Source: a bacterium (lineage in GTDB: Bacteria > Actinomycetota > Acidimicrobiia > Spongiisociales > ZC4RG35). Taken from it: a DNA stretch of 64,000 nucleotides. The notes below the pieces were generated by a model. That model saw only the letters and a list, made by a program, of their open reading frames with translations, was not told the DNA's origin and ran no database searches. Every line of letters begins with the position of its first letter. The stretch's first letter is position 1. Of this stretch, positions 16,773 through 41,305 are shown piece by piece. The stretch spans positions 40,506-104,505 of the forward strand of contig JAPPFC010000055.1 in assembly GCA_028824015.1 (NCBI GenBank), read 5' to 3'. The position numbers were made by a program, and so were the translations under genes.

Positions 16773-18830
16773 TTACTCGGAGACCTCCACGGCCAGGGTG
16801 TAGGAACCCTCCCCGTAACCCGACACCTCAACATAGAAGTCCCCTGTCAACGGCGCCCGCCACTCGACACGAGACGCCAGGGAACCCTCATAGTCGTCAT
16901 CCCAGGCCCACTCGAATCCATCGGAGTCATAGACCGCGAGTACCGAGTCGGAGAGGGTGCCCAATGTCACGGCTATCTCATACAAGGTGCCCTCCAAGGC
17001 TCCGAACACGAAAACGTCCACATCATCGGGATAGTCCAGCACCCCCGCCGCCGACCTCCCCACTTCCACCGCGGTGGCGCCCTCCGACAGGTTCGAGTGG
17101 TCGTCCGTGATGTCGGACTCCCGGACCGTCAGGGTGTAGGAACCCTCCCCATAGCCCGACACCTCGACATAGAGGTCCCCGCTGACCGGTGCCCTAAACA
17201 CCAGGCGAGACGCAAACGAACCCTCTCCGCGGTCATCATTAGAACCCAACCACACCCCATCGGCGTCATAAACGGCCACCGCCGAGTCGGAGAGAGAACC
17301 CAACTCCACATCCACCTCATACAACACATCCTCAGCAGCCCCGAACACGAAGACGTCCACATCATCGGCGTACTCCAACACCCCTTCCACAGACTCCCCC
17401 AACGCCGCCTCGGTTGCGCCATCCACCCCATCGGCATAGTCATCGACGATGTCGGAGACCACTACCGCCAACATGTACGAACCCTCCCCATAACCCGACA
17501 CCTCCACAAAGAAGTCCCCGGACTGCGGCGCCCTCCACGCCAATCCAGACCCCAAATCCTCATCGCCCCGGTCATCGTTCCACGCCACCTCCCAACCGTG
17601 GGAATCCACCACCGCCACCACCGAATCCGAGAGCGTCCCCAGGTCCACATCCACCTCGTACACCTCCCCCTCCACCGCCTCGAACACGAAATAGTCCACA
17701 TCCCCCTCGTAATCCAACACGCCCTCCACAGATTCGCCCAACACCATCTCGGAGGCCCCATCCACCCCATCCCCATGGTCATCCTCCACATCGAGCGCAA
17801 CAACCCTCAGCGTGTAGGAGCCCGTCGAACCGAAGCCTCCACCGAAACCCGACACCTCAACGTAGAAATCCCCGGTCATCGACGCCCTCCATACCAGCCG
17901 CGACCCGTAGGAATCGTCCCCCCGGTCATCGTTGTAGTCGAGCTGAAACCCGTCGGCGTCGGCAATCGCCACCACCGAATCGCCAAGAGTCCCCAGGTCG
18001 ACCTCCACCTCGTACACCTCGCCCTCCACCGCCTCGAACACGAAGTAGTCCACGTCTCCCTCGTTCTCCAAGACCCCCTCAGCAGCCTCTCCCACCACCA
18101 ACCGAACCGCGCTCGCCGCGCCATCTGCAAAGTCGTCCGGCCCTCCGACGCCGGCATCGAACAGTTCGGGTAGGCACCTCAGCAAACCAGCCATCATCTC
18201 AAAGAGTTGAGCCGCGTCTTCCGCCTGGGCGGCTTCGTCGGAAGCACCGGAATCCGAAGTCAATACGGCGATGAGGGCGGTCACGTCCATCTCGTCAACG
18301 ACCTCCCGCAAACAGTCTTCCTGCTCTTCGCCCACCTGGATTCCGTCGTCCTCCATTCCGAACGCCATGCCGGCCAGAAACACGGCTCTGACTACCTGGG
18401 GAGGGAGGCATGGGAGTAACGCCAATTGTGGCTGGCTCAATTGATCCTCATCCAGGATCCCCTGCCGCAAGACCCTGTCCAGCTCCGTTCCAGCCGCGTC
18501 GCTGACGCAAGCCTGCTCGGCGGGAGTCAGAGCGTCGAACACATCTCTCCAAACCGTGTCGCGGTCGATGTCCAAACCCTCAATGCCAATCGGAGCCTCA
18601 GGCACAGTGGTCGGTGGGCTGGTGGTGGTCGGTGGCTGTGGCGTGGTGGTGGTCGGCGAGGCCGTGGTGATCGGCGGCTGGGTTGCGGTGGTGGTCGATT
18701 GCAGGGTCGTGGAGGAAGGTTCCGCAGCGGGCTTCTCCTCGTCACCGCAAGCCAGGAGCAACATCGCTGCCGCCAACCACAGCAACGCCACCCTTGGAGG
18801 GCGGTGGCTGAATGACGGACAACTCCACAT
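16773..18830 (-). CDS. Secreted lipoprotein with five tandem pre-peptidase C-terminal (PPC)-like repeat domains
   Basis: Signal peptide plus lipobox (LLLACG), then a Thr/Pro-rich linker and a Cys-containing acidic region. Five ~95-aa repeats follow, each with GDVDYFVFEAVEGEVYEVDVDLGTLSDSVVAV...NDDRG...GDFYVEVSGYGEGSYTL. Confidence 0.7.
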   Translation of the reverse strand: MWSCPSFSHRPPRVALLWLAAAMLLLACGDEEKPAAEPSSTTLQSTTTATQPPITTASPTTTTPQPPTTTSPPTTVPEAPIGIEGLDIDRDTVWRDVFDALTPAEQACVSDAAGTELDRVLRQGILDEDQLSQPQLALLPCLPPQVVRAVFLAGMAFGMEDDGIQVGEEQEDCLREVVDEMDVTALIAVLTSDSGASDEAAQAEDAAQLFEMMAGLLRCLPELFDAGVGGPDDFADGAASAVRLVVGEAAEGVLENEGDVDYFVFEAVEGEVYEVEVDLGTLGDSVVAIADADGFQLDYNDDRGDDSYGSRLVWRASMTGDFYVEVSGFGGGFGSTGSYTLRVVALDVEDDHGDGVDGASEMVLGESVEGVLDYEGDVDYFVFEAVEGEVYEVDVDLGTLSDSVVAVVDSHGWEVAWNDDRGDEDLGSGLAWRAPQSGDFFVEVSGYGEGSYMLAVVVSDIVDDYADGVDGATEAALGESVEGVLEYADDVDVFVFGAAEDVLYEVDVELGSLSDSAVAVYDADGVWLGSNDDRGEGSFASRLVFRAPVSGDLYVEVSGYGEGSYTLTVRESDITDDHSNLSEGATAVEVGRSAAGVLDYPDDVDVFVFGALEGTLYEIAVTLGTLSDSVLAVYDSDGFEWAWDDDYEGSLASRVEWRAPLTGDFYVEVSGYGEGSYTLAVEVSE

Positions 18831-27087: not shown

Positions 27088-28728
27088 ATGGCCCCCACAG
27101 TCCATCCGGAACTCGAGATCTACGACACGACCTTACGCGACGGCGCCCAGCAGGAGGGGATCTCTCTCACCGTCTCCGACAAGCTGCGGATCGCCTCCCT
27201 CCTGGACTCCCTGGGAGTCCACTTCATCGAGGGCGGGTGGCCCGGCGCCTTGCCCAAGGATGACGAGTTCTTCGCCCGGGCGAAGACCGAGTTGTCCCTG
27301 TCCAACAGCCAACTCACCGCTTTCGGATCCACACGTCGCCCCTCCCGACGAGTGGAGAGCGATCCCCAGATACGAGCCCTCCTGGCGGCAGAGACCGAGA
27401 TCATCTGCATCGTGGGCAAGTCCTGGGACTACCACGTCCGAGAGGCCCTTCGCACCGACCTGGACGAGGGAATCCGCATGGCCGCCGAGTCGGTGGAGTA
27501 TCTGAAGTCACACGGCAGACGGGTGTTCTTCGACGCCGAGCACTTCTTCGACGGCTATCGCACCAATCCCCGGTACGCGGTGGCGGTGTTGCGGGCCGCA
27601 TGGGAGGCGGGCGCTGAGCGGTTGGTGCTGTGCGACACCAATGGCGGGGCTCTGCCCATCCAGATAAACAGGATCATCGATGAGATAGGACTGGCCCTGC
27701 CCGGAGCCGAACTGGGAGTCCATTTTCACGACGACGCCGGATGCGCGGTGGCTTCGTCGCTGGTAGCCGCCTCGCAGGGGGTGAGGCAGGTCCAGGGATG
27801 TATAAACGGCTATGGAGAGCGGACCGGAAACGCAAACCTCTCCACGGTCATCCCCGACCTGGTGCTGAAGATGGGGGTTCCGGTGGTGGACCAGGAGCGC
27901 CTCTCCCAGATTTCTCCCATCTCCCATCACATCGCCGAGGTGGTGAACATCACCCTGGAACCTCATCGCCCGTATGTTGGCGGTTCGGCGTTCACGCACA
28001 AGGCCGGTCTGCACACCTCTGCTCTGGCCCGCCGCCCCGACGCCTACGAGCACACCCGTCCCGACCTGGTTGGCAACCACACCCGGATGGTCATCTCCGA
28101 GCAGGCCGGGCGGGCGGCGGTGATCCGGAGAGCCGCCTCCCTGGGGCTCACGATCTCCCAGGACCTGGCCGGGGAGGTCCTCGGGCACATCAAGGAGATG
28201 GAACACCGCGGATACCAGTTCGAAGCGGCCGACGGGACCTTCGAGTTGTTGGTGAGACGCACGCTCGGCTGGAGCCAGAACCTATTCTCGGCCCACAGCT
28301 TCTCGGTCTCCATCCAACATGACGGCGCCGATGGCGAGATCGTCTCCCAGGCCGAGGTCGTGGTGGAAGTCGGAGGGATCCGTCACCGCACCGCGGGCAC
28401 CGGAGTGGGACCTGTCCACGCCTTGGACCAGGCACTGCGCGCCTCTCTGATCTCGGCCTTCCCGCAACTCGATCGTCTCCGGTTGATCGACTTCCGGGTG
28501 AGGGTGCTGGACTCCTCCGACGGCACCAGCGCCACCGTCCGGGTGTTGATCGAGACCTCCGACGGCGTCACCTCCTGGGGGACGGTGGGGGTTCATCCCA
28601 ACATCATCGAAGCCTCATGGGAGGCGCTCTCGGACGGGCTGACCGTGGGTTTGTTGCGGCTCGGCGCCGCCCAGCAACCACCCCCTGCAGGTCTTCTAGG
28701 TTTGGGAACTGCATCCGACCCTAAATGA
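27088..28728 (+). CDS. cimA: (R)-citramalate synthase (LeuA-family; isoleucine biosynthesis)
   Basis: IYDTTLRDGAQQEGISLTVSDKLRIASLLDSLGVHFIEGGWPGALPKDDEFF matches the CimA subfamily rather than short LeuA. 546 aa with a LeuA-dimer C-terminal domain. GGAGA RBS. Confidence 0.8.
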   Translation: MAPTVHPELEIYDTTLRDGAQQEGISLTVSDKLRIASLLDSLGVHFIEGGWPGALPKDDEFFARAKTELSLSNSQLTAFGSTRRPSRRVESDPQIRALLAAETEIICIVGKSWDYHVREALRTDLDEGIRMAAESVEYLKSHGRRVFFDAEHFFDGYRTNPRYAVAVLRAAWEAGAERLVLCDTNGGALPIQINRIIDEIGLALPGAELGVHFHDDAGCAVASSLVAASQGVRQVQGCINGYGERTGNANLSTVIPDLVLKMGVPVVDQERLSQISPISHHIAEVVNITLEPHRPYVGGSAFTHKAGLHTSALARRPDAYEHTRPDLVGNHTRMVISEQAGRAAVIRRAASLGLTISQDLAGEVLGHIKEMEHRGYQFEAADGTFELLVRRTLGWSQNLFSAHSFSVSIQHDGADGEIVSQAEVVVEVGGIRHRTAGTGVGPVHALDQALRASLISAFPQLDRLRLIDFRVRVLDSSDGTSATVRVLIETSDGVTSWGTVGVHPNIIEASWEALSDGLTVGLLRLGAAQQPPPAGLLGLGTASDPK

Positions 28729-28765
28729 CGGTAGTTTCAACCAGTGTGACGTCCGGGGTGAGTCG

Positions 28766-29404
28766 TTGATGAACCAAAAGTCTCAACCTCGGGTCGTCGT
28801 CTACGTTGACGGATTCAACTTCTATTACGGTGCTCTCAAGAAGACCCACCTGAAGTGGGTAGATCATCGAGCCCTTGCGGAAGCTCTCTTGCGAGGCTAC
28901 AGCATCGAGAGAGTGAAGTATTTCACAGCACGAGTGAAGAATCGGCCTGATGATCCAGGCCTGTCACAACGCCAGAATGACTACATCCGAGCCCTGGTTG
29001 CCCATGCCGACGTGGAGGTACATTTCGGACAGTTCAAGCTGCGTCCCAAACGACTGCCTTTGGCTGGAAACCTGCAGAAATTCACCAGAGTGATCTCCAC
29101 TGAGGAGAAGGGATCAGATGTGTCATTAGGTGCCCATCTAGTGTGGGACGCATGTCATGATCTGATGGACACTGCCCTTGTCATTTCCAACGACAGCGAC
29201 CTTCAAACTCCAGTCGATATGGCTGACAAGAAGGGCATAACGGTAATAACACTCAACCCTCACCGCCGATCAGGGCAACCCCGGCGTCTCTTCGGTTCGG
29301 AGGAACGAACCTTGCGGCTGAGGCACCTGCGACGTTCTCAGTTGCCAGACCCGGTTATCGATGAACGGGGCGGACGCATCCCGAAACCTAGGGAGTGGAA
29401 GTGA
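28766..29404 (+). CDS. NYN (LabA-like/PIN-like) domain protein with an Arg-rich C-terminal tail
   Basis: RVVVYVDGFNFYYG...VISNDSDL are NYN signature motifs, and the basic tail is RRSGQPRRLF...RLRHLRR. The gene and its flanks are ~50% GC against ~68% in surrounding DNA. Confidence 0.75.
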   Translation: MMNQKSQPRVVVYVDGFNFYYGALKKTHLKWVDHRALAEALLRGYSIERVKYFTARVKNRPDDPGLSQRQNDYIRALVAHADVEVHFGQFKLRPKRLPLAGNLQKFTRVISTEEKGSDVSLGAHLVWDACHDLMDTALVISNDSDLQTPVDMADKKGITVITLNPHRRSGQPRRLFGSEERTLRLRHLRRSQLPDPVIDERGGRIPKPREWK

Positions 29405-29408
29405 TGCA

Positions 29409-29436
29409 CAAAGGCCCGCCGAGGCGGGCCTTTGTT
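29409..29436 (+). terminator. Terminator hairpin AAAGGCCCGCC-GAG-GCGGGCCTTT followed by GTTGGG
   Basis: A perfect inverted repeat 5 nt after the NYN stop codon. Confidence 0.6.
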
Positions 29437-29585
29437 GGGCCTAGTCACCGTAAGGAGATCTAGGTGGGTTCTAAACCACATTATACGGTATAACAGGCTG
29501 GCGTAGCCGATTTTCCACTTTGGAATTGCCACTGTTGCATCTCTTTTCCGACTCTTGGACGGCCAGGCAAGGACATCTTGTCCCT

Positions 29586-30173
29586 CTAGGCGGTCAGATC
29601 AGCAGGCCGTGGCGCTACAGACAATCCCAACATGACCCGCACCAGATAAGCCGTGGCTCCCCATAGCCACTCTCCCGAGACCTCCATGAACCAGAGCGGC
29701 ACGCCGGACCAAGTCCGGACCACCCAGTTCTCGGGGGCCGCCAGCGCCTCGAGGGAAGGAGTCAAAACCTTTTCCACCTCCTCCGGCGAAGCACGAAAGG
29801 CGGACTCACCCCCGATGCGGGCCACGATCCCCACCATGGGCAGGGCGAAACGCACCGTGCGGATCACCGGCAGGAAACCCAGCACCTCCACCTCTGACGG
29901 ATGGATGCCCACCTCCTCATGGGTCTCACGGAGGGCCGTCTCCACCGGACCGGCATCCTCGGTATGGGGTTTTCCTCCCGGAAACGCGATCTGTCCGGCG
30001 TGGCTGTTGAGATTTCGGGACCGTTTGGTGAGCACCAGTCGCAGAATTCCGTCCCGGTCTGCGAAAATGGGGGCCAAGACCGCCGCCAAGCCCTCCTGGG
30101 GTACGCTCGGCGCCTCGGAGGAGAAATGAAGGCGGTCCCACATAATCCCCATCATGGCAGGAAAGCCATCCAC
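29586..30173 (-). CDS. NUDIX hydrolase (CoA-pyrophosphatase-like)
   Basis: Nudix box GGKPHTEDAGPVETALRETHEEVG. 195 aa. Confidence 0.8.
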   Translation of the reverse strand: MDGFPAMMGIMWDRLHFSSEAPSVPQEGLAAVLAPIFADRDGILRLVLTKRSRNLNSHAGQIAFPGGKPHTEDAGPVETALRETHEEVGIHPSEVEVLGFLPVIRTVRFALPMVGIVARIGGESAFRASPEEVEKVLTPSLEALAAPENWVVRTWSGVPLWFMEVSGEWLWGATAYLVRVMLGLSVAPRPADLTA

Positions 30174-31872: not shown

Positions 31873-32108
31873 GACGCCCTTCTTGCAAGAGGCCGGGGGT
31901 CGGATACGCCACGGCAATCGTTTATCTGCGGGAGATGCTCGACTCCAGGCGGACCAAAACAATGGAGTCTGCGACTCCAGTCTTGCTCGCTAACACAGTC
32001 GCCGCATGTCACAATCTGCATGTAAAGTTCACGCTATATGTATACCGTTGGCGATACGTTCACGATACAGGCATGGCTCTACTGCTTCGCTAGGCGTGGG
32101 AAGCGATC

Positions 32109-33518
32109 ATGACCTATTTCGACTCTCTTCCAAAAGCAACCCGCAACGATCCGCATCCCTCAGCTAAGAGACTGCGCGGTCCGATCGCAGTGCTGGTAGC
32201 AGTGACCCTGGCGCTCATGTCGGCCATGGCGACCCGCGCCCTTCTGGCGCCCGCCCCCGCAGCCGCGTTGCAGACGACATCGATCACGTCTATCGCATTC
32301 ACCAACGCGCCCGCCGGGGGCTTGTTCAACATCGTCGACCACTACTACAGCATCGGGAGCGACGTCGAGGTGACGGCTACCTTCGGCGGGGACGTGACGG
32401 TGACGGGCACCCCGCGCGTCCTGCTGACGTTCGGAACGGAGGGAACCCGGGATGCGACCTATGTCTCGGACGCCAGCACCGCCACCGAACTGGTGTTCCG
32501 CTACACCCTGGTGGACGGGGACAGCACAGGACAATCCAGCCTGTCGCTGGCCGCCAACGCGTTGGACGCCGACGGTGCCGACGGCTCAGCCAGCATCCAG
32601 GCGGGTGGCGCGGATGTGGACGCTACCCACGACGAAGTGCCGACCACAATACTGGTCTCCGCTCACCGGCCGATCATCTTCGGGGCGTATGTCGCCCAGG
32701 CGCCCGGCGTCGACGCGGATCTGGACGGCACCGCGGAGACCTACGTTGAAGGCGACACGCTCAACGTCTTGGTGAGATTCAACCTGCTGATGAAGGTGGA
32801 CACCAAGGGCGATGACGCCAACGTGCAGATCGTGGTGGACGTCGGCGGCACCGAGTACACGCTGGACTTCGCGGGCAGGTACCTGAACAAGATTGGGTTC
32901 GGATCGCACACCGTAAAGGCCTCCGACGCGGACAGCAACGGGATAACCATCAAGCGGGATGGATCGAACAATCTGGTGCGCCTGTCGAACGACGCCACGC
33001 TGACGAGCTGGCTCGGCGATAACGAACCGGTCATCACCGCCGCCGCAGACTTGTCGGTCACGACGGCCTTGGCGCTGGACGGACAGGCCACCCCCAAGGT
33101 CAAGGTGCGCGGCACGAACGCGACGCCCACCGGAGCGGACTTCAGCAAGTCCACCGCCGCCGACACGGACCTGACCTTCACGCTGGCGGACTTCGCGATA
33201 ACCGACAGTGACGGTGACCCGCTCAAGGAGATCCGGCTCACCAGCCTGCCGACGAGTTCGCAGGGCGTGCTCCGAGTGGACGGGACTGCGGTCGCGTCGG
33301 GCGACCTGCCCAGAGTCGTTGCCCGCTCCGAGTTGGTCGCGGCCGGACTGGTGCTCGACCCCGCCTCGGGCTTCACCGGAGACACCAGCTTCATGTTCAA
33401 GGTGGTGGACTCGTTCGGCGCAGCCGCCGCGACCGCCAACACCGCCACCGTCAGTGTGGCGGCCTCAGGAGGCAGCGGCAGCGGCGGCGGTGACGCCCCG
33501 CCAGTTGGCGGGCTGTGA
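32109..33518 (+). CDS. Secreted protein of unknown function (signal peptide; Thr/Asp/Gly-rich; probable beta-rich adhesin-like fold)
   Basis: 469 aa. N-terminal basic segment plus hydrophobic helix (IAVLVAVTLALMSAMATRALLAPAPAAA). No catalytic motifs were recognised. It is preceded by a 230-bp AT-richer regulatory region. Confidence 0.45.
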   Translation: MTYFDSLPKATRNDPHPSAKRLRGPIAVLVAVTLALMSAMATRALLAPAPAAALQTTSITSIAFTNAPAGGLFNIVDHYYSIGSDVEVTATFGGDVTVTGTPRVLLTFGTEGTRDATYVSDASTATELVFRYTLVDGDSTGQSSLSLAANALDADGADGSASIQAGGADVDATHDEVPTTILVSAHRPIIFGAYVAQAPGVDADLDGTAETYVEGDTLNVLVRFNLLMKVDTKGDDANVQIVVDVGGTEYTLDFAGRYLNKIGFGSHTVKASDADSNGITIKRDGSNNLVRLSNDATLTSWLGDNEPVITAAADLSVTTALALDGQATPKVKVRGTNATPTGADFSKSTAADTDLTFTLADFAITDSDGDPLKEIRLTSLPTSSQGVLRVDGTAVASGDLPRVVARSELVAAGLVLDPASGFTGDTSFMFKVVDSFGAAAATANTATVSVAASGGSGSGGGDAPPVGGL

Positions 33519-33586
33519 TTTGAACCCCGGTGGTTGGTGGCCGGCTGTGAGGCTCGTGGGTCGTCGGTGGTGGTAGGTTCTGTCCG

Positions 33587-34249
33587 CTACACCATCAGGT
33601 GATTGAGAAACACCACCCCGGCTATCGTCACGACACCCAAATAGGAGAGTCCGGTGGCCGCCATCACTCCCGAGTAGCCGGTTTCCCCCAAGGCGAACCA
33701 GGCGCCGGCCACCAGAGCGGCGCCTACCATTGCAAGCCCCGCCAAGGTCCAGCCCAAGGCGCCACCCTCGTAGGGCACCGCTCCGTTCAGCCACCCGGCC
33801 ACCACACTTAGGACCAGACCCGCACCGGACAGGAGATCCAGACGGCGCACAGCCCAGCGGGGCAGGGTCGGATCAACCAGGAACCAGTGACCCAGGAGCA
33901 TGGTGGCGGTGATTCCCCCTAGGGCCGCCCCGCTGGCGATGGTCGACAACCATCCGGCGGAAAGCACCGAGGAGACCAATGTAAAGACTGCACCGACCGC
34001 CACCAACCCTGAATACCCACGCCGGCCCGAACGCCCCACCCCGAACAGCACCAGGACCAGCCCGGCGGCGGCCCACCAGGAACGCAGGGCGGGATAGATC
34101 ATCAACAGCACGGCGGTCCCGGCTCCCAGCATCTGGTACCCCCGCTTGGCGACCTGCCAGCGGACCGCCAGCGGCAGGGTGAGCGCCAGACCCCCCGCCC
34201 AGGCGGCCATGAAGGCGGCCGGTCCGAAAGTGGCGCCGGTCGGTATCAC
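33587..34249 (-). CDS. Integral membrane protein of unknown function (6-7 TM helices)
   Basis: 220 aa, highly hydrophobic, Gly/Ala/Leu-rich. Confidence 0.45.
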   Translation of the reverse strand: MIPTGATFGPAAFMAAWAGGLALTLPLAVRWQVAKRGYQMLGAGTAVLLMIYPALRSWWAAAGLVLVLFGVGRSGRRGYSGLVAVGAVFTLVSSVLSAGWLSTIASGAALGGITATMLLGHWFLVDPTLPRWAVRRLDLLSGAGLVLSVVAGWLNGAVPYEGGALGWTLAGLAMVGAALVAGAWFALGETGYSGVMAATGLSYLGVVTIAGVVFLNHLMV

Positions 34250-34254
34250 CGCTG

Positions 34255-36183
34255 CTAGGCGGAGATTTGGGAAAGCACCCGCTCGGCCACGGCCTCGGCT
34301 ACGAAGCCGAACTCTCGGGCCAGTACCTCATAGGGCGCCGAGGCGCCGAAACTGTCAATCCCGATCGCTAGCCCTTCGGCCCCCACCATTCTCTCCCACC
34401 CGAAAGTGGCGCCGGCCTCCACGGAGACCCTCGGAATGCCCGCCCCCAGCACCTCTCGCCGATAGGAGGAGTCCTGCTCTGCGAACGCTTCCCAGCAGGT
34501 AAGGCTGACCACCCGCGCCGAGATCCCGCGGCTCTCCAGGAGGTCGGCGGCTTCCAGCGCCAGAGACACCTCCGACCCGCCGGCGATCAGGACCACGTCT
34601 TCCCCGGGACGCAGCATGTACCCGCCCCGGGCGGCCCCGCCTCGCGCCCGGGAGCGATCCAGAACCGGGAGGTTCTGGCGGCTGAGGACCAGGACCGTGG
34701 GCCCATCGGTGCGATTGAGGGCCATCTCCCAAGCCTCCACGGTCTCGGTGGCGTCGGCCGGACGGATCACCCACAGGCCGGGCATGGCTCGAAGCCCGGC
34801 GAGGTGCTCGACGGGTTGGTGAGTGGGACCGTCCTCTCCCAACATGATGGAGTCGTGAGTCATCACCCATATACAGGGGAGTTCCATCAAAGCGGACAGC
34901 CGGATGGAGGGCCGCATGTAGTCGGTGAACACGAAAAAGGTGGAACCGTAGGGACGGACCCCTCCATGCAGCGCCATCCCGTTCACTATCCCTCCCATCC
35001 CGTGCTCCCTTACCCCGAAGTGAATGTTCCGACCGGTGCGGGCCGAACGGGAAAAGCCCGGATCGCCGGGCAGCACCGTTTTGGTGGACTCCGCCAGGTC
35101 GGCCGCGCCTCCGATGAATCCCGGGACCTTCTCCCCGATCTGGCCGAAGAGCTTCCCCGATGCCGAACGGGTGGCGATGCTATCTCCGGGCTCGAATCCC
35201 GGAGACTCCAGTTGCACCGGCCGGTGGGCATGGAGAACTCGCCACTCTGCGCTACGTTCCCGGCTCTCCCAGTCTCGGCGCGCCGCCCTTCCCCGCTCCA
35301 TAGCCTCCGACATGAAGTCGTAGACCTCCGGCGGCGCCCAGAAGTCCTCCTCCGGCGGGATACCGATGTTCATCTTGGCCAGTCTCACTTCCGCTGCTCC
35401 GAGCGGCGCCCCGTGGGCGCCGGGGGTGTCCACCTTGTTGGGGGAACCGTGAGCGATATGGGTACGGCAGATGACCAGGGACGGCTGGTCCCCGGCGTCA
35501 AGAGCCTCCCGGGTGGCTTCCGCCACCGCCGACCGGTCGTGGCCGTCCACCGAGACGGTGTGCCATCCCAACGAGCGGAACCGCGCCCCGACGTCCTCGG
35601 AGAACGTGATCTCCGTTCCGCCGTCGATGGAGATGCGGTTGTCGTCGTAGAAGTAGATCAACCTCCCCAGGCCCAGATGTCCGGCCAGGGAAGCCGCCTC
35701 GGCTGCCACGCCCTCCATCAGGTCTCCGTCGGACACGAACCCGTAGGTGTGGTGATCGACCTGGTCGGCGCCCAGCCGCGCCCGGAGATGCTCCTCGGCG
35801 ATGGCCATTCCCACCCCGTTGGCGAAGCCCTGGCCGAGGGGACCGGTGGTTGTCTCGATTCCCAGCGCCGGTTCTCTCTCGGGGTGACCGGCCGTGGGAT
35901 AACCCCACTGGCGGAAATTCTTCAAGTCCTCCATGGTGACCGGGAACCCGCACAGATGCAACATGGCGTAGAGCAGCATCGAGCCGTGCCCGTTGGAGAG
36001 CACGAAGCGATCCCGATCGGCCCAGGTGGGACATCCCGGGTCCACCCTCATAAAGCGGGTCCAGAGGGTCACGGCGATGTCTGCCATGCCCATGGGCATC
36101 CCCGGATGGCCGGAGTTGGCTCGCTGGACGGCGTCCATGGCCAGTCCCTTGACAACCGCTACGGCGAGTTCTTCATTCCTCAT
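34255..36183 (-). CDS. tkt: Transketolase
   Basis: AMDAVQRANSGHPGMPMGMADIA, the TPP-binding GDGDLMEG-like motif and the C-terminal domain. The start is probably MRNEELAVAV at 36183. The track ORF extends to 36282. Confidence 0.9.
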   Translation of the reverse strand: MRNEELAVAVVKGLAMDAVQRANSGHPGMPMGMADIAVTLWTRFMRVDPGCPTWADRDRFVLSNGHGSMLLYAMLHLCGFPVTMEDLKNFRQWGYPTAGHPEREPALGIETTTGPLGQGFANGVGMAIAEEHLRARLGADQVDHHTYGFVSDGDLMEGVAAEAASLAGHLGLGRLIYFYDDNRISIDGGTEITFSEDVGARFRSLGWHTVSVDGHDRSAVAEATREALDAGDQPSLVICRTHIAHGSPNKVDTPGAHGAPLGAAEVRLAKMNIGIPPEEDFWAPPEVYDFMSEAMERGRAARRDWESRERSAEWRVLHAHRPVQLESPGFEPGDSIATRSASGKLFGQIGEKVPGFIGGAADLAESTKTVLPGDPGFSRSARTGRNIHFGVREHGMGGIVNGMALHGGVRPYGSTFFVFTDYMRPSIRLSALMELPCIWVMTHDSIMLGEDGPTHQPVEHLAGLRAMPGLWVIRPADATETVEAWEMALNRTDGPTVLVLSRQNLPVLDRSRARGGAARGGYMLRPGEDVVLIAGGSEVSLALEAADLLESRGISARVVSLTCWEAFAEQDSSYRREVLGAGIPRVSVEAGATFGWERMVGAEGLAIGIDSFGASAPYEVLAREFGFVAEAVAERVLSQISA

Positions 36184-39100
36184 CACCGAACATACGGTAC
36201 CAAGACGTCTCGGTGACCCTGCCATCGGCGGCGATACCCTGAGTGCGCTGCCAATACTTGGTGTCCGCCACGGTGTTCTCATCGAACACGCCCGTCACCT
36301 CGATCCCCAGCGCTCCCTGCCACTTCTCCACCAACGCACCCCTGTCGCCCTCTTCGATGACCACCGAGGAGGGCCGGGTGGTGGAACTCCCCGCGGAGGA
36401 CGAGCCGCCCGGCACGCTCGCTCCCGGGAACATCTTGACCCATGAGTTGACGCCTACTATCCCGTCGACCTCGAGGCCGTTGGCGCGCTGCCACTCCCGG
36501 GTGGCCCGGGCGGTCTGGGAGCCGAAGTGCCCGTCGGCGGGGATCCCCAATGCCCGCTGCCAGATAATCACATGCGTCCCCCGGGACCCGGTCCGCAGAG
36601 GCCGGCCCGGGTAGGGCGGAGCTTCTCCATCGAAGTCGTTATCCCCCGGATCCGGCGAAGATGTCTCCGTCGCTTCGGCCCCGGGGAACATCTTGAGCCA
36701 GGAACTGACTCCCACCACACCGTCTGCGGTGAGACCGTTGCGGTACTGCCAAGCCTTGGTCGCCGACAGGGTGGCCGAACCGAAATACCCATCGGCCTGT
36801 ATGCCCAGGGCGCGTTGCCAGATAATGACACTTGAACCGCTGTCCCCCATTTCAAGGGGTCGGCCCGGGTAGGGGGGGACGCCAGGTGTGGTACCCGTGC
36901 TTCCCGATCCCTGGCTGTCGTCACCCTCCTTGTCGGGGGGAGGTTCCGGCGCCTCCACCCCCGCGCCGGGGAACATGGTTTGCCAGCTTTGCATGCCCAC
37001 CACACCGTCAACCGTCAGGCCGTTGGCCTGCTGCCACTCCCGGGTGGCCTGGGCCGTGCCGGTTCCGAAGTACCCGTCGGCCGCAACCCCCAGTGCGGAC
37101 TGCCAGGTCCGCACCCACTTCCCTCGGCTGCCCAGTCGCAGGACGAAGCCGGGGTAGCTGGGAGCCTGGGGATCGGTTGCCTCCGGTTGAGGCGCCTCTT
37201 CAGGGTCAGGCTCGGTCTCGGTCTCCGGATCAGGCTCCGGTTGGGGAGGGGCGGGTTGGGAGAACATCCTGTCCCAGGATTGGCTCCCGACTATTCCGTC
37301 GGGAGCCAGACCATTGGCCTGCTGCCACTCCCGGGTGGCGGCGGTGGTGGCCGGTCCGAAATCTCCATCGGCGGTGACGCCCAACGCCTCCTGCCACAGT
37401 CGCACATCGCTCCCCCGGCTCCCCTCGCGCAGCGGCTGGCCGGGATAGGGGTGCTCGATGATCAGCGCGCTGGGAGGGGTGGGTTCAGAGGGAGGACTCG
37501 AACCTATCTGGTTGCCGGCAGTGACCGTGAAGCTGTACGCCACCCCTGCTTGAAGACCGCTGATGACCGCGGTGGTCTGGGACGCCGCCACCGTGACCGG
37601 ATCGGAATGGGCCGGATCGACGCTGACCGTGTAGCGCTCGGGCGCAAAGCGGGAGGAAACCGGGCTCCAACTCACCGTCGCCACGCGCCCCCCGCTGACC
37701 GTCACGCCGGTGGGAGCGGGCGGCGGCGCCCACCAGTCCGCCAGGTAGTCGATCGTGAAGTACCGGGACCGAAGGCGGAGTGCGGACCTCAGCGTCGGAG
37801 CCGAAACCCTTTCGGTGACTCTGTCGCCTCCCCGGATCCCGGCGATGTTGAGAAACTGGGCGCTCCCCCACGGATAGGAAACCGTGTCAACCGAGATTAC
37901 GTCGTCGAATCGATCGGACAACTCATAGATGTCGAGCAGTTGGGACAGAGAGAGGGTCTTTGCCCAGAAGGCGTTGGGATTGACGGCGGGATCGATCGAC
38001 CAAGGATCCTGGACCGAGACCAGGTAAGGCCGCCCCGCCGTCCCCCAGATCGTCGAGGAGTCCTCGGTCGCCCCTCCACTGGAGGACGAGTAGAAAGCCT
38101 GAACCACTCCTACGGATTCCTCGGGATGGGTCAGCACTCTTCCCGCGGTGGCCCGGGCTCCCACCAGTTCCCAGCGGCCCCCGTTCTGTATCTCCCTGTT
38201 CCAACCTCCATATACCTGGTCACGGGCGTCGCTGACCACATGACACCAGCAGGCCGACTTGCGGGAACTGCTCAGGGAAGGCTCCGCTCCCCGCCGAAGC
38301 ATTGCATATATCGCGTACGATCGGGCTGCGATGGCCTGGGCCTCCAACGCGGCGTCCGGCCAGGTGGGAGGGATCTCCGCTATGCCTGCCACGTAGTCCT
38401 CGATGTCCATCTCCATCGAGAAGTGGATCCTCCCTCCGCTGGGACGGACCCGCACATTGCCGTGGATGAACTGTGTCATCTCTCCCCCGTAGTTGAGGCC
38501 TCTCAGGCCCACCCGGTTGGAGTGGGAGAGATCCTGGATGCTCAGCCGGCATCCCGCGGCCACCCCCAGCGGTGCGGCGGTACAGGATCCGTCCCCCGCC
38601 GCGGTCACCACCAGGTCCTCTCCCGCATCGAGGTAGTAGGCCCCGGCGCAGTCGGGCAAGCCGCTTCCCGCCACCAGCGCCTGCCAGGTTTGGCTCCCCA
38701 CCGTCCCGTCAGCGCCCAGGCCCTGGGACGTCTGGAAGGAGACCACCGCATCCTTTACCGCTTGGTTGAAGGAACCGGGCGTCTCCTGCAGGTACCCCCG
38801 TTCCACCAACCTGCTGATCAAGAGATCGGTGAAGGTGTTGTCACGTCCGGGAGTCGTCCCTTCGGCCAGCACCGGATAGGAGGAATACTCCCCGTCGAAG
38901 CAGACCCTCACCCGGCCGGTTACCACCGCGAAGGTCAACTCCGACCGGTTTTGCCTTATCCCCACCCAGATGGGCAGTGGTTCGGTGATCACCCAAGAAC
39001 CGGGTACTGCGTCGGCAAGATTCTCGACGGATGAGCCCTGGTAGAAGTGCTGAAGAATCTGGGTGGCGGTGTAACCCTCCTCCGCCATGCCCTTGGCGCC

Positions 39101-39496
39101 GTACTGGGTGAGACCCACTCCATGCCCATGTCCGGACCCCTCGATAATCAACTGCACCCTGTCCGGGCTGGTGGTCGCGGTGCCCGACCCGGGAAACATC
39201 GCCCGCCAGGAAGCGGCGCCCACTATCCCATCCGCCTCCAAGCCACGCTCGTTCTGCCAGGCGATAGTGGCTGCTTCGGTTTGTCGGCCGAACACCCCGT
39301 CAGCCGGAATCCCGAGAGCCTCCTGCCAGATCCTGACCGACTCGCCGCGGCTGCCCAGCCGCAGGGGCTCCCCCGGGTAATCGGCCGCCGCGACCGGAAC
39401 GACCGTTCCCAGTAGCAAGATCATCGCGGCCAGAAACGCCGCCACCCGCTTGGACGAGTGTCGTCCCATTGAATTCCTGATGCCTTCCAAGGTCAA
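36173..39496 (-). CDS. Large secreted cell-wall protein: N-terminal signal peptide, SpoIID/LytB domain, fibronectin-III-like region and about seven peptidoglycan-binding (PG_binding_1) repeats
   Basis: 1107 aa. Repeated units have the form GSRG..V..WQ.ALG...DG.FG..T..AT..WQ...GL..DG.VG..SW. A SpoIID/LytB-like core is present (YLVSVQDPWS...HSNRVGLRGLNYGGEM). Signal peptide AAFLAAMILLLGTVVPVAAA. The reverse-strand repeated ORFs in the track are artefacts of these repeats. Confidence 0.7.
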   Translation of the reverse strand: MTLEGIRNSMGRHSSKRVAAFLAAMILLLGTVVPVAAADYPGEPLRLGSRGESVRIWQEALGIPADGVFGRQTEAATIAWQNERGLEADGIVGAASWRAMFPGSGTATTSPDRVQLIIEGSGHGHGVGLTQYGAKGMAEEGYTATQILQHFYQGSSVENLADAVPGSWVITEPLPIWVGIRQNRSELTFAVVTGRVRVCFDGEYSSYPVLAEGTTPGRDNTFTDLLISRLVERGYLQETPGSFNQAVKDAVVSFQTSQGLGADGTVGSQTWQALVAGSGLPDCAGAYYLDAGEDLVVTAAGDGSCTAAPLGVAAGCRLSIQDLSHSNRVGLRGLNYGGEMTQFIHGNVRVRPSGGRIHFSMEMDIEDYVAGIAEIPPTWPDAALEAQAIAARSYAIYAMLRRGAEPSLSSSRKSACWCHVVSDARDQVYGGWNREIQNGGRWELVGARATAGRVLTHPEESVGVVQAFYSSSSGGATEDSSTIWGTAGRPYLVSVQDPWSIDPAVNPNAFWAKTLSLSQLLDIYELSDRFDDVISVDTVSYPWGSAQFLNIAGIRGGDRVTERVSAPTLRSALRLRSRYFTIDYLADWWAPPPAPTGVTVSGGRVATVSWSPVSSRFAPERYTVSVDPAHSDPVTVAASQTTAVISGLQAGVAYSFTVTAGNQIGSSPPSEPTPPSALIIEHPYPGQPLREGSRGSDVRLWQEALGVTADGDFGPATTAATREWQQANGLAPDGIVGSQSWDRMFSQPAPPQPEPDPETETEPDPEEAPQPEATDPQAPSYPGFVLRLGSRGKWVRTWQSALGVAADGYFGTGTAQATREWQQANGLTVDGVVGMQSWQTMFPGAGVEAPEPPPDKEGDDSQGSGSTGTTPGVPPYPGRPLEMGDSGSSVIIWQRALGIQADGYFGSATLSATKAWQYRNGLTADGVVGVSSWLKMFPGAEATETSSPDPGDNDFDGEAPPYPGRPLRTGSRGTHVIIWQRALGIPADGHFGSQTARATREWQRANGLEVDGIVGVNSWVKMFPGASVPGGSSSAGSSTTRPSSVVIEEGDRGALVEKWQGALGIEVTGVFDENTVADTKYWQRTQGIAADGRVTETSWYRMFGDEE

Positions 39497-39568: not shown

Positions 39569-41305
39569 CTAAATGTACGACCTGGCCACCGGTCGGCGGC
39601 CGATCACCACCGGAGTCCTCCCCGGTGACTGAGGGGTGGCTGCCTGCTTGGAACTCTTGGCGTGATAACTGGAGCGCACCAGCGGCCCCGATTCCACATG
39701 CGGGATGCCCAAAGCCTCGCCGTAGGAGCGGTATTCCTGGAACTCGTCGGGGTGAACGTAGCGATGCACGGGTCGGTGGCGGGGGCTGGGACGCAGATAT
39801 TGGCCGATCGTGACAATGTCCACTCCCACCGCCCGCAGGTCGGCCAGCGCCCCCAGCACCTCGTCGCGGGTCTCGCCCATCCCCACTATCAGCCCCGATT
39901 TGACGAGTCCCTCGGCATAGAGCCGCTTGGCTCGGGCCAGGAGCGCCAACGAGCGCCCGTAGTTGGCGGAGGTGCGGATCTCCCGCTGCAGCCTGACGAC
40001 GGTCTCGGTGTTGTGATTGAGCACGTCGGGACGCTCGGCCATCACCGTCTCCAGTGCTTCCGGATCACCCTTGAAGTCGGGAATCAGCACCTCGATGTCG
40101 GTGTGGGGGGACCGGGCGCGGGTCTCCCTGATGGTGGCGGCAAAGACCGCCGAGCCGCCATCTGGCAGGTCGTCACGGTTCACGGAGGTGATCACCGCGT
40201 GGTTCAGGCCCATCCGATGGATCGCCTCGGCCGCCCGGTGGGGCTCCTCGAGGTCTAGCCCCAGGGGCCGGGCGGTCGTCACGTTGCAGAACCCGCAGGC
40301 GCGGGTGCAACGGTCGCCCAGAATCATCAGGGTGGCGGTCCCCATCCCCCAGCACTCGTAGATGTTGGGACATCCCGCCTCTTCGCAAACCGTATTGAGG
40401 TCCAGGGATCGCATCAGTTTCTTCAGTTCCAGGTACTCGGCGTCCATCCGGGCCGTCACCCGCATCCAGGGGGGACGCTCCGGCTCGCCCGGCAGCCTCC
40501 GGGTTCTCCCCGAGAGGCTCACCGCCACGCGGTCGGGTGAAAAGGTTCCCTCCCTGAGCAACCTGTCCACCTCGAAGTCTCTGTCCCGTCCCTGACCCCG
40601 GACAAAAGCTGCCATCTGCGTCTCCATCGTGGTCTTTCCGAATGTCTCGGCGAAACGCGGCACAAAGGCTTCCACCGCCTCCTCGAGCGATACACGCCGA
40701 CCCACCAGTTCGCTCACGGAAGTAACCGGGCGATCGGTGATCCCACAGGGGTTTATGTGCCCGAAATACTCCATGCTGGGGTGCAGGTTGAGAGCGAAGC
40801 CGTGCATCGACACCCGCCGGGAGACCCGTACGCCGATGGCCGCCACCTTTCCGCCCCGGGTCCACACCCCGGTGAGCCCGGGTTCGGGCCAGGCTTCTAC
40901 TCCCAGATCGGAGAGGGTTGCCACCAACGCCTGTTCCAGGGAGCGCACGTAGTCGGTTATCCGGGAGGGTTTAACGGCGATGAGCGGATACCCGACCAGT
41001 TGGCCGGGGCCGTGATAGGTAACGTCCCCTCCCCGGTCGACCCGGAAGAACTCCGCTCCCACCTCCGAGAGCCGGTCGGGGCCGATCAGAAGATGAGAGC
41101 CGTCCCCTCTTCGTCCCACCGTGTAAACGTGGGGATGTTCCAGCAACAACAGGTAGTCGTCCGCTATGGCCCCTCCGGCCCGGCGCTCCCAGATGGCTCG
41201 CTGGAGGTCCCAGGCCTCTGCATAAGGAAGCCGCCCCAGCCATCGCACGCGAAGGGTGGGGCTCACCCCGGGGGGGGTCACCTCAATTCCTGCTCCCAGT
41301 CCCAT
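39569..41305 (-). CDS. Fused octanoyltransferase LipB - lipoyl synthase LipA (single 578-aa reading frame)
   Basis: The N-terminal 230 aa are LipB (PHVYTVGRRG, GGDVTYHGPGQLVGYPL, KVAAIGVR). The C-terminal 320 aa are LipA (PPWMRV..., the CEEAGCPNIYEC auxiliary cluster, and the CTRACGFC radical-SAM cluster). The frame is continuous. GTG at 41281 overlaps the E2 stop as GTGA and is an alternative start. Confidence 0.8.
   Translation of the reverse strand: MGLGAGIEVTPPGVSPTLRVRWLGRLPYAEAWDLQRAIWERRAGGAIADDYLLLLEHPHVYTVGRRGDGSHLLIGPDRLSEVGAEFFRVDRGGDVTYHGPGQLVGYPLIAVKPSRITDYVRSLEQALVATLSDLGVEAWPEPGLTGVWTRGGKVAAIGVRVSRRVSMHGFALNLHPSMEYFGHINPCGITDRPVTSVSELVGRRVSLEEAVEAFVPRFAETFGKTTMETQMAAFVRGQGRDRDFEVDRLLREGTFSPDRVAVSLSGRTRRLPGEPERPPWMRVTARMDAEYLELKKLMRSLDLNTVCEEAGCPNIYECWGMGTATLMILGDRCTRACGFCNVTTARPLGLDLEEPHRAAEAIHRMGLNHAVITSVNRDDLPDGGSAVFAATIRETRARSPHTDIEVLIPDFKGDPEALETVMAERPDVLNHNTETVVRLQREIRTSANYGRSLALLARAKRLYAEGLVKSGLIVGMGETRDEVLGALADLRAVGVDIVTIGQYLRPSPRHRPVHRYVHPDEFQEYRSYGEALGIPHVESGPLVRSSYHAKSSKQAATPQSPGRTPVVIGRRPVARSYI

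Follow-up and report, generated by a model that had tools for sequence, protein, structure and literature searches.

We examined a 64,000-nucleotide stretch of a genome from the class Acidimicrobiia (contig JAPPFC010000055.1, positions 40,506 to 104,505 of the forward strand; the whole stretch is called the window here), in which a first-pass annotation had singled out a low-GC insertion carrying a solitary nuclease gene. The gene encodes a NYN-domain protein of the HEC-09 family and lies between cimA and a gene for a Nudix/CoA pyrophosphatase. It is not solitary: a conserved small-RNA gene, on the opposite strand in the window, accompanies the NYN family almost everywhere. This RNA gene is conserved, previously undescribed, and absent from Rfam. 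The protein adds a member to an already known candidate family; its pairing with the RNA would be a new variant of RNA-controlled toxin modules. We interpret the segment as an old cassette of a NYN ribonuclease (RNase) and a convergent small RNA of ~70 nucleotides (nt), and on balance we think it probable, by a modest measure, that the RNA acts in trans as an antitoxin or restrainer of the nuclease.

The predicted RNA (Table 1) consists of a short 5′ tail, hairpin A, a linker, and hairpin B, and its 3′ end overlaps the stop codon of the NYN gene (29402 to 29404). Covariance model R1 matched the window at 29399 to 29495 with 85.6 bits. Between 29402 and 29500 there was a single difference from the closest relative, L103 (loci compared here are designated by L numbers), while synonymous divergence (dS) in the NYN open reading frame (ORF) was 0.40; conservation over the ~95 nt 3′ of the NYN stop codon was above that of the coding sequence, and this stretch travels with the gene. 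Hairpin B had been described as a perfect GC hairpin that terminates the NYN gene. The stem is indeed perfect, with arms of 13 nt each at 29408 to 29420 and 29423 to 29435 that are 100% complementary and 2 nt apart, but as a terminator it belongs to the minus-strand small-RNA gene: an A-run ahead of the stem on the plus strand is a U-run after the stem on the minus strand. A consensus terminator scan called no plus-strand terminator at hairpin B, because the hairpin has no following T-run on that strand. Transcription of NYN probably stops at hairpin B as well, so that the hairpin would be a bidirectional terminator. The window copy of the small-RNA promoter has no clear -35 box. Further upstream, the stretch at 29485 to 29545 is nearly identical in L103 despite the dS of 0.40 in the ORF but is not conserved beyond the -10 box in L001, L003, and L008; it may serve to bind a regulator or give rise to another transcript. 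No tandem array was found near the NYN gene in the window.

The association between the RNA and the NYN gene extends far beyond the window. A second covariance model, R2, was built in the RNA sense from ten non-Acidimicrobiia copies and searched against 1.03 Mb, with hits counted at E ≤ 1e-4. It recovered 64 copies in 62 sources, each adjoining a NYN gene or a NYN remnant. Conversely, of the NYN-bearing loci examined, just five gave no RNA match beside NYN: L033, L038, L048, L057, and L078. In the most frequent layout, the RNA lies in tandem, directly upstream of the NYN gene (50 loci, including the Leptospira plasmid L094, plus the E. coli plasmid L091), and the terminator U-run ends ~10 to 25 nt before the NYN start. 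A convergent layout, with the RNA downstream, was found in 7 loci by R2 and in 24 Acidimicrobiia loci and the window by R1, and one locus (L043) is divergent. R1 also matched after NYN genes of Chloroflexota and other Actinomycetota, with weak opposite-strand matches upstream of NYN genes in other phyla. The predicted protein-RNA pair is kept across many phyla in these three layouts.

Copy number and decay vary around this pairing. Two RNA copies 170 to 280 nt apart stand beside one NYN gene in L028 (6640 to 6709 and 6916 to 6985) and L069 (5750 to 5818 and 5919 to 5987); in L028, the last NYN codons (GGCTGGTAA) precede each copy. Solo copies with no NYN gene were found downstream of plsY in L101 (2396 to 2491 and 5632 to 5729) and L095 (110 to 205). 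L101 contains a segmental duplication with two RNA copies, the second of which has lost its promoter; no locus besides L028, L069, and L101 has two separated copies. The NYN gene is often frameshifted or truncated beside an intact RNA gene (L024, L029, L041, L096, L098 to L100, and L102), and in L048 it is decayed and no match to the RNA was obtained. Of the two genes, that of the nuclease seems the more easily lost.

Comparison of copies supported both the structure of the RNA and its strand. In the first alignment, which was not fitted to a model, RNAalifold returned two hairpins with compensatory changes in 6 of 18 pairs, and 95.6% of cells were paired, versus 18 to 45% when the 3′ partners were slid. 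The stem of hairpin A covaries among CCUAG/CUAGG, CUUGG/CCAAG, CCCAG/CUGGG, CCCGG/CCGGG, and CUCAACC/GGUUGAG. In the alignment of all 64 copies, which was fitted to the model, compensatory changes were present in all 18 pairs, 96.5% of cells were paired (37 to 59% when slid), and the covariation score was 0.670 versus 0.268 for shuffled alignments, with none of 500 shuffles reaching the observed value. Columns A82, T86, and A87 were invariant in alignment A4, giving A-NNN-TA on the plus strand, which on the other strand reads TANNNT. Of 33 elements, 31 had a -10 box of this form 10 to 15 nt ahead of hairpin A, and 25 had a TTGNNN -35 box at a spacing of 16 to 19 nt. Among the 64 copies, a full sigma-70-type promoter, TTGNNN-N16-19-TANNNT, was found directly upstream in 43, compared to 1.4% of random windows (p ~1e-63), and the -10 box was in place in 55, compared to 9.6%. 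Furthermore, most members have C(UUCG)G in the two loops, and a U-run after hairpin B, only when read in the RNA sense, and in the tandem loci L079, L063, L031, and L040 the RNA and its own promoter immediately precede the NYN gene on the same strand. On the basis of the promoter motif, the UUCG loops, the U-run, and these tandem loci, we reversed the strand assignment to the minus strand.

Several other interpretations of the element were tried and rejected. Our first model, a sense-strand 3′ untranslated region (UTR) or plain terminator, was dropped because of the missing plus-strand T-run and the position of the UUCG loops and promoter on the other strand. In addition, the two G·U pairs that had spoken for the plus strand are just the outermost pair of each helix. 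An alternative hairpin, GAGAAC/GUUCUC, that would compete with hairpin A forms in only a subset of sequences. None of the 4227 models of Rfam 15 matched the RNA, whether in the window copy or in nine loci covering both layouts, even with thresholds relaxed to E ≤ 1-10. No paper retrieved in literature searches connected NYN proteins with an RNA antitoxin, a partner RNA, or a described RNA motif.

The probable start of the NYN gene is the ATG at 28769, which gives a product of 211 amino acids (aa), matching its homologues. A Shine-Dalgarno-like sequence, GGGGTGAG, could be read at 28755 to 28762, 3′ of the candidate -10 box (Table 1), and many NYN homologues have TAGNNT-N8-ATG/GTG, an arrangement that resembles a leaderless layout. 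The protein matched the Pfam NYN family PF01936 (E = 1.1e-7, 33 bits against a cutoff of 24.2), PHROG 7929 (E = 7e-48), and, over its full length, the PADLOC HEC-09 model PDLC04163 (E = 6.9e-43, residues 9 to 212, profile positions 3 to 203 of 203). The motifs VYVDGFNFYYG and SNDSDL, cited in the first-pass annotation as marks of a NYN (LabA-like) domain, are both present and fall in invariant alignment columns; that assignment holds. Across 36 diverse NYN sequences, residues D14, E113, D117, D142, and D144 were invariant, and a family-specific C-terminal block, QLPxPV...G..I.KP..W, was conserved. The C terminus, which had been called a strongly basic tail, is basic (14 K+R versus 6 D+E in the last 48 residues) but not a loose tail, since it is conserved and predicted to be folded. 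An AlphaFold (AF2) model had a predicted local distance difference test score (pLDDT) of 91 and a predicted template modeling score (pTM) of 0.86, and its top matches among solved structures were the LabA-like protein 2qip (E = 2.9e-6) and the NYN domain of MARF1, 6fdl (E = 1e-3). Sequence searches against solved structures and NCBIfam yielded nothing useful.

Altogether, the product is predicted to be a metal-dependent endoribonuclease with a conserved C-terminal extension. The ratio of nonsynonymous to synonymous substitutions (dN/dS) relative to the closest relative, L103 (91% aa identity), was 0.107, indicating purifying selection on the NYN gene. The searches yielded more than 2,250 relatives; the nearest belong to metagenome-assembled genomes (MAGs) of Acidimicrobiia, including the sponge-associated Ca. 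Poriferisocius. The HEC-09-type NYN family comprises >2,000 proteins from at least ten phyla and is present on hundreds of plasmids.

The segment between cimA and the Nudix gene is compositionally distinct. At 53.8% GC, 28730 to 29586 is the lowest of all 857-bp windows in the 64 kb (z = -3.96), compared to 64.0% for the window as a whole, 64.8% for cimA, and 63.8% for the Nudix gene, so the GC dip reported earlier is real, although its size (~50% versus ~68%) was overstated. Tetranucleotide composition also deviated (z = 4.25, second-ranked place within the window). GC content at third codon positions (GC3) in the ORF was 58%, versus 74 to 85% in five neighboring genes. The view that codon usage departs from the surroundings was correct in this respect and for AAG (5.2 per 100 codons), less so for AAA (1.4, a modest frequency), and not for TTT, which had been called frequent and does not occur. 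The most tetranucleotide-deviant stretch of the window is elsewhere, at ~16.8 to 17.4 kb, within a 685-aa ORF on the minus strand (16773 to 18830) that also holds tandem repeats of 18, 21, and 42 nt (18607 to 18697). The tetramer CTAG occurs 28 times in the window, with 6 copies within 28690 to 29600: at the insert edges (28696 and 29586), twice in hairpin A (29441 and 29460), and twice in the ORF.

The insert sits between two convergent genes, cimA (27088 to 28728, plus strand) and the Nudix gene (29586 to 30173, minus strand), in a neighborhood of housekeeping genes on either side (cimA, Nudix, GNAT, and epimerase). The reading frame of cimA extends ~14 codons into the inserted DNA (28684 to 28728, with the stop codon at 28726 to 28728), giving cimA a new C-terminal tail relative to L003. 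As the first-pass annotation had stated, no integrase or repeats mark the site: no integrase gene was present among the ORFs and domain matches, and a repeat search of 28500 to 29800 found no convincing flanking repeat, only weak imperfect repeats at the edges. Similar stretches at the two edges, AGGTCTTCTAGG near 28690 and AGGACATCTTGTCCCTCTAGG near 29569, both resemble the one L088 sequence and were considered as a target site duplication; since they are imperfect and were not seen at other insertion sites, we make no such claim. A 20-nt repeat, D3, from the same search was treated as chance. IS200/IS605-type ends (PATE) were ruled out because the upstream edge of the shared unit has no hairpin, and an integron attC site was ruled out because there are no R''/R' cores and two separate hairpins in place of one long imperfect one.

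We compared the junction TrpRS-cimA-[ ]-Nudix-GNAT-epimerase across related loci. A NYN gene occupies the identical cimA-Nudix junction in L001/L002, L003, L008, and L103, and a disrupted copy is present in L024; the five relatives with the gene at this junction have cimA sequences that are 84 to 93% identical. In L088, a member of the same clade whose cimA is 89% identical, cimA and the Nudix gene abut or overlap, which represents a clean empty site, and no RNA match was found there. L089 retains a 381-nt remnant in which 28 NYN residues are detectable and the downstream RNA element is intact (70 bits), whereas in L090 the site is occupied by a gene for an AMP-binding enzyme. All copies at the cimA site are low in GC (51 to 53%). 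The degree of identity in NYN is out of step with that in the flanks (window versus L008, 93% for cimA but 71% for NYN; L003 versus L008, 84% and 82%), which points to rate differences or allele exchange. The downstream element has derived features that are common to the copies at the cimA site; the simplest history is therefore one ancient insertion, after which the gene descended vertically and repeatedly decayed or was lost. Judged by these comparisons, the insertion is real but old, having been present at the cimA-Nudix junction before the clade diverged. The suggestion that the gene was horizontally acquired is therefore upheld as regards foreign origin, given the composition and the empty site in L088, but not as a recent event, given the same junction in five relatives and the low dN/dS.

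A second variable spot lies ~3 kb from the NYN site. Past the epimerase gene, relatives carry a PIN-PhdYeFM toxin-antitoxin pair and type I-U/I-G-like cas genes (Cas_GSU0053/0054, Cas3, and Cas1/Cas2) at L001 13072 to 20636, L003 4542 to 12085, L089 1 to 830, and L090 1 to 2486. At the corresponding place (31900 to 33600) the window has a gene for a 469-aa cadherin-like protein (32109 to 33518), followed by transketolase.

More distant NYN genes (57 to 68% identity) were found at unrelated sites: between an SDR gene and the gene for ribosomal protein S1, inside a Hen1-Pnkp/HNH/VapBC island, and beside PemK, ParA, and an integrase fragment. In pairwise BLAST comparisons of Acidimicrobiia loci, only the ORF with 0 to 48 nt upstream and 65 to 150 nt downstream was common to such contexts, and near-identical units were shared by L015 and L029 (821 bp at 94.9% identity) and by L021 and L041 (833 bp at 92.4%). 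No recombinase is encoded within the shared unit of ~0.83 kb, and terminal repeats could not be established. By this comparison, we read the segment as a cassette of two genes and ~0.83 kb that is old and was once mobile, with the predicted RNA gene and the NYN gene moving as one unit. The family is found on 237 plasmids; among them are plasmids of 3.46 kb from E. coli and Serratia whose only annotated proteins are a helix-turn-helix protein, a VbhA-family antitoxin, and NYN. On one of these, the ColE1-type E. coli plasmid NZ_CP091696.1 (L091, 3461 bp), the partner RNA is at 3124 to 3059, upstream of NYN; two hairpins downstream of NYN that we had considered for this role turned out to be ColE1 RNAI (RF00106, 93.8 bits; 2248 to 2349). 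In the Mycobacterium prophage prophiGD43A-1, NYN is gene 6 in the integrase-to-repressor (lysogeny) region, and the RNA follows it. Among the 143 immediate neighbors in 72 loci, tyrosine integrases were the most frequent (nine), ahead of a conserved ApbA/PanE gene (five), DNA methylases (three), AbiEii (one), and a TOTE primase (one), which fits mobile-element cargo. A pattern scan of viral contigs returned no match.

HEC-09 was described as a single protein embedded in Hma systems, with a NYN domain holding three or more conserved aspartates (Payne et al. 2024, 10.1101/2024.01.29.577857). The window protein shares with it the full-profile match, the NYN domain, and a MARF1-like fold; it differs in the position of its gene, at a housekeeping junction, and in a partner small-RNA gene on which the HEC-09 paper is silent. 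Embedding in Hma or another defense system was not seen at the window, and the PIN-PhdYeFM and cas genes of relatives are 3 kb away and nonadjacent. The protein is also akin to LabA-like NYN proteins (NYN.COG1432) in its PF01936 domain, its best structural match (2qip), and its conserved acidic residues. However, its subfamily has its own C-terminal extension, is mobile and RNA linked, and is not linked to the clock or to tRNA/rRNA operons. A classification of the PIN superfamily lists the LabA-like NYN group as of unknown function, with nuclease activity untested (Matelska et al. 2017, PMC5499597).

At the level of the module, the likeness to type III toxin-antitoxin systems (ToxIN, CptIN, and TenpIN; AvcID) lies in an effector gene beside a noncoding RNA gene, a predicted endoribonuclease, and carriage on plasmids and prophages. 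The toxIN order is promoter, RNA, intrinsic terminator, and toxin gene, and 50 relatives of the window locus have the corresponding order with their protein gene. Unlike type III systems, the module has a NYN fold instead of ToxN/AbiQ and one two-hairpin unit instead of tandem repeats; in the window, the RNA gene lies downstream of NYN in a convergent orientation, so that the type III order is not found there. In type I systems such as fst/RNAII par, txpA/RatA, and bsrG/SR4, the toxin and RNA genes overlap at their 3′ ends and the toxins are small membrane peptides. The window genes resemble these in being transcribed toward a shared, probably two-way terminator, with a small RNA that has its own promoter, but the product is a 211-aa soluble-type nuclease and no small hydrophobic peptide, and in most relatives the RNA is not antisense to the NYN gene. 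An antisense overlap is predicted in the window across the shared terminator only; tandem loci have none.

The earlier idea of a toxin- or defense-type RNase holds as a candidate role, the protein having a full-length HEC-09 match, although HEC-09 protected against none of the phages tried in its one published assay. A conserved partner RNA suggests an RNA-controlled toxin or defense module, and the three differing layouts make action in trans, on the nuclease or on its expression, the most likely mode for the RNA. In ToxIN loci, the RNA is present in excess of the toxin because of the terminator; the tandem order seen here, with a ribosome-binding site between terminator and NYN, is that of type III loci, which favors the reading that the RNA restrains the nuclease. 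Under this reading, the short RNA would stay in excess thanks to a strong promoter, and NYN would be made at a low level, in most relatives only through read-through of the RNA terminator. In the window, the NYN level might instead depend on a weak candidate promoter and rare low-GC3 codons, next to an RNA gene with a perfect -10 box; this would suit little toxin and much RNA but is speculative. Depletion of the RNA, by transcription shutoff during phage infection or by loss of the element, would free the nuclease, which could then cut cellular or invader RNA and produce addiction or abortive-infection behavior. In this lineage, the cassette would have entered the cimA-Nudix junction before the clade diverged and then been inherited vertically, with repeated decay and loss. 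We extend the proposal, with slightly less than even confidence, to the HEC-09 family as a new class of RNA-protein modules, in which a promoter-bearing RNA of ~60 to 70 nt with two UUCG-capped hairpins would inhibit or sense NYN in trans in any of the three layouts, making it a new toxin-antitoxin or abortive-infection family.

Several points weigh against restraint of the nuclease by the RNA. An intact RNA beside a decayed or absent NYN gene (L024, L089, L095, L096, and L098 to L102) is not expected of a dedicated antitoxin, barring recent decay or an additional use of the RNA, for instance in termination. The RNA is single copy, unlike the ToxI repeat array. RNA production, NYN toxicity, and RNA-NYN interaction are all predictions from sequence. 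The 64-copy covariation alignment leans toward the structure to which it was fitted, though the unfitted first analysis agrees. Most immediate neighbors are housekeeping genes, which leaves support from defense islands weak, and the HEC-09 paper predicted an RNase but found no protection against any phage tested and reported no toxicity (Payne et al. 2024). The tandem anatomy, moreover, could be that of a plain cis-acting leader or attenuator. We regard control purely in cis as unlikely but as deserving serious weight: the RNA would be an attenuator leader in tandem loci, perhaps cut or bound by NYN in autoregulation, and an antisense RNA sharing the NYN terminator in convergent ones, as in type I systems such as fst/RNAII or txpA/RatA. 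Such a role would suit the 50 loci in which the terminator U-run ends within ~10 to 25 nt of the NYN start, leaving no room for a separate NYN promoter, the overlap of the RNA 3′ end with the NYN stop codon in the window, and the lack of any NYN gene without the element among Acidimicrobiia loci; Regnase-1, which autoregulates through its own 3′ UTR, provides a parallel. However, the sequence, structure, and own promoter of the RNA are kept in tandem, convergent, and divergent layouts, and a pure leader could not work from the opposite strand downstream of the gene. Tandem RNAs are not antisense to NYN, and in the convergent layout complementarity amounts to the ~30-nt terminator unless there is read-through.

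The same intact RNAs beside decayed NYN genes, together with the solo copies after plsY, would be expected if the RNA were the working product or cofactor and NYN its processing or partner enzyme, serving the carrier elements in plasmid or prophage competition or in RNA-based sensing. The strong consensus promoter of the RNA and the carriage of the module by very small plasmids and within the lysogeny region of a prophage also fit this idea, which we nevertheless consider improbable, since the RNA is all stem-loop except for a short 5′ tail and a 4- to 6-nt linker, with little room for guiding or target pairing, and solo copies are rare (two of seven true metagenome matches, with none elsewhere in the 1.03 Mb). 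We give very little credence to the earlier view of a stand-alone, single-gene RNase effector, recently acquired with its own intrinsic terminator. The insert does hold one protein gene, a hairpin right after its stop codon, and an atypical composition; yet the hairpin is part of a conserved, promoter-bearing RNA gene on the opposite strand with no plus-strand T-run, the site has been occupied since before the clade diverged, and the family-wide association with the RNA contradicts a gene that stands alone. An ordinary, vertically inherited housekeeping RNase with incidentally low GC seems the least credible option of all. It would account for the same position in several relatives and for purifying selection, but not for the empty site, remnant, and replacement in sister genomes, the near-identical modules in unrelated contexts, the frequent pseudogenes, carriage on plasmids and a prophage, or the incongruence between NYN and its flanks (71% versus 93% between the window and L008).

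NYN/LabA-like proteins are among the largest bacterial nuclease families without a known function, and defense-finder databases list HEC-09 as a one-gene candidate that failed its sole test. The partner RNA alters how the family should be annotated, cloned, and assayed, since constructs and screens need to include the RNA. Should the RNA indeed restrain the nuclease, RNA-antitoxin systems would gain both a new toxin fold and a new, nonrepetitive type of RNA. Covariance models now exist for an RNA missing from Rfam, and the locus offers a worked case of a tiny, recombinase-less cassette that has long persisted at low GC in a GC-rich genome.

Table 1. Features of the inserted segment and its two-gene cassette, in window positions
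Feature	Position	Strand	Basis
NYN-domain protein gene, HEC-09 family, 211 aa	28769..29404 (ORF 28766/28769-29404)	+	Pfam, PADLOC, PHROG, conserved residues, AF2 model
Candidate -10 box TAGTTT of NYN gene (putative)	28732..28737	+	Sequence reading; same TAGTTT in L008 and L103
Predicted small-RNA gene, ~70 nt, convergent with NYN; both ends predicted	29400..29472	-	Model R1, conservation versus L103, family-wide association
Hairpin A, RNA sense CCUAG-A-UC-U-CC-UUAC-GG-U-GA-CUAGG	29438..29464	-	Covariation of stem
Hairpin B, perfect 13-bp GC-rich stem ACAAAGGCCCGCC/GGCGGGCCTTTGT, small-RNA terminator	29408..29435		Arm match, compensatory changes, U-run
Small-RNA promoter, -10 box TATAAT	29479..29484	-	TANNNT position in elements, invariant columns
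Distal conserved noncoding stretch upstream of RNA promoter	29485..29545		~5 differences in 60 nt versus L103
Inserted low-GC segment, edges approximate	28684..29585		GC, L088 comparison; left edge near 28684-28700, right edge near 29568-29585 (alignment to L088)

Two other genes of the window, both on the minus strand, were noted for their domain compositions. A 578-aa ORF at 39569 to 41305 combines the catalytic domain of a lipoyl/octanoyl transferase (LplA-B_cat) with lipoyl synthase domains (LIAS_N and Radical_SAM) and resembles a LipB-LipA fusion. Nearby, 36173 to 39496 encodes a 1107-aa protein with SpoIID, fn3, and six PG_binding_1 repeats.

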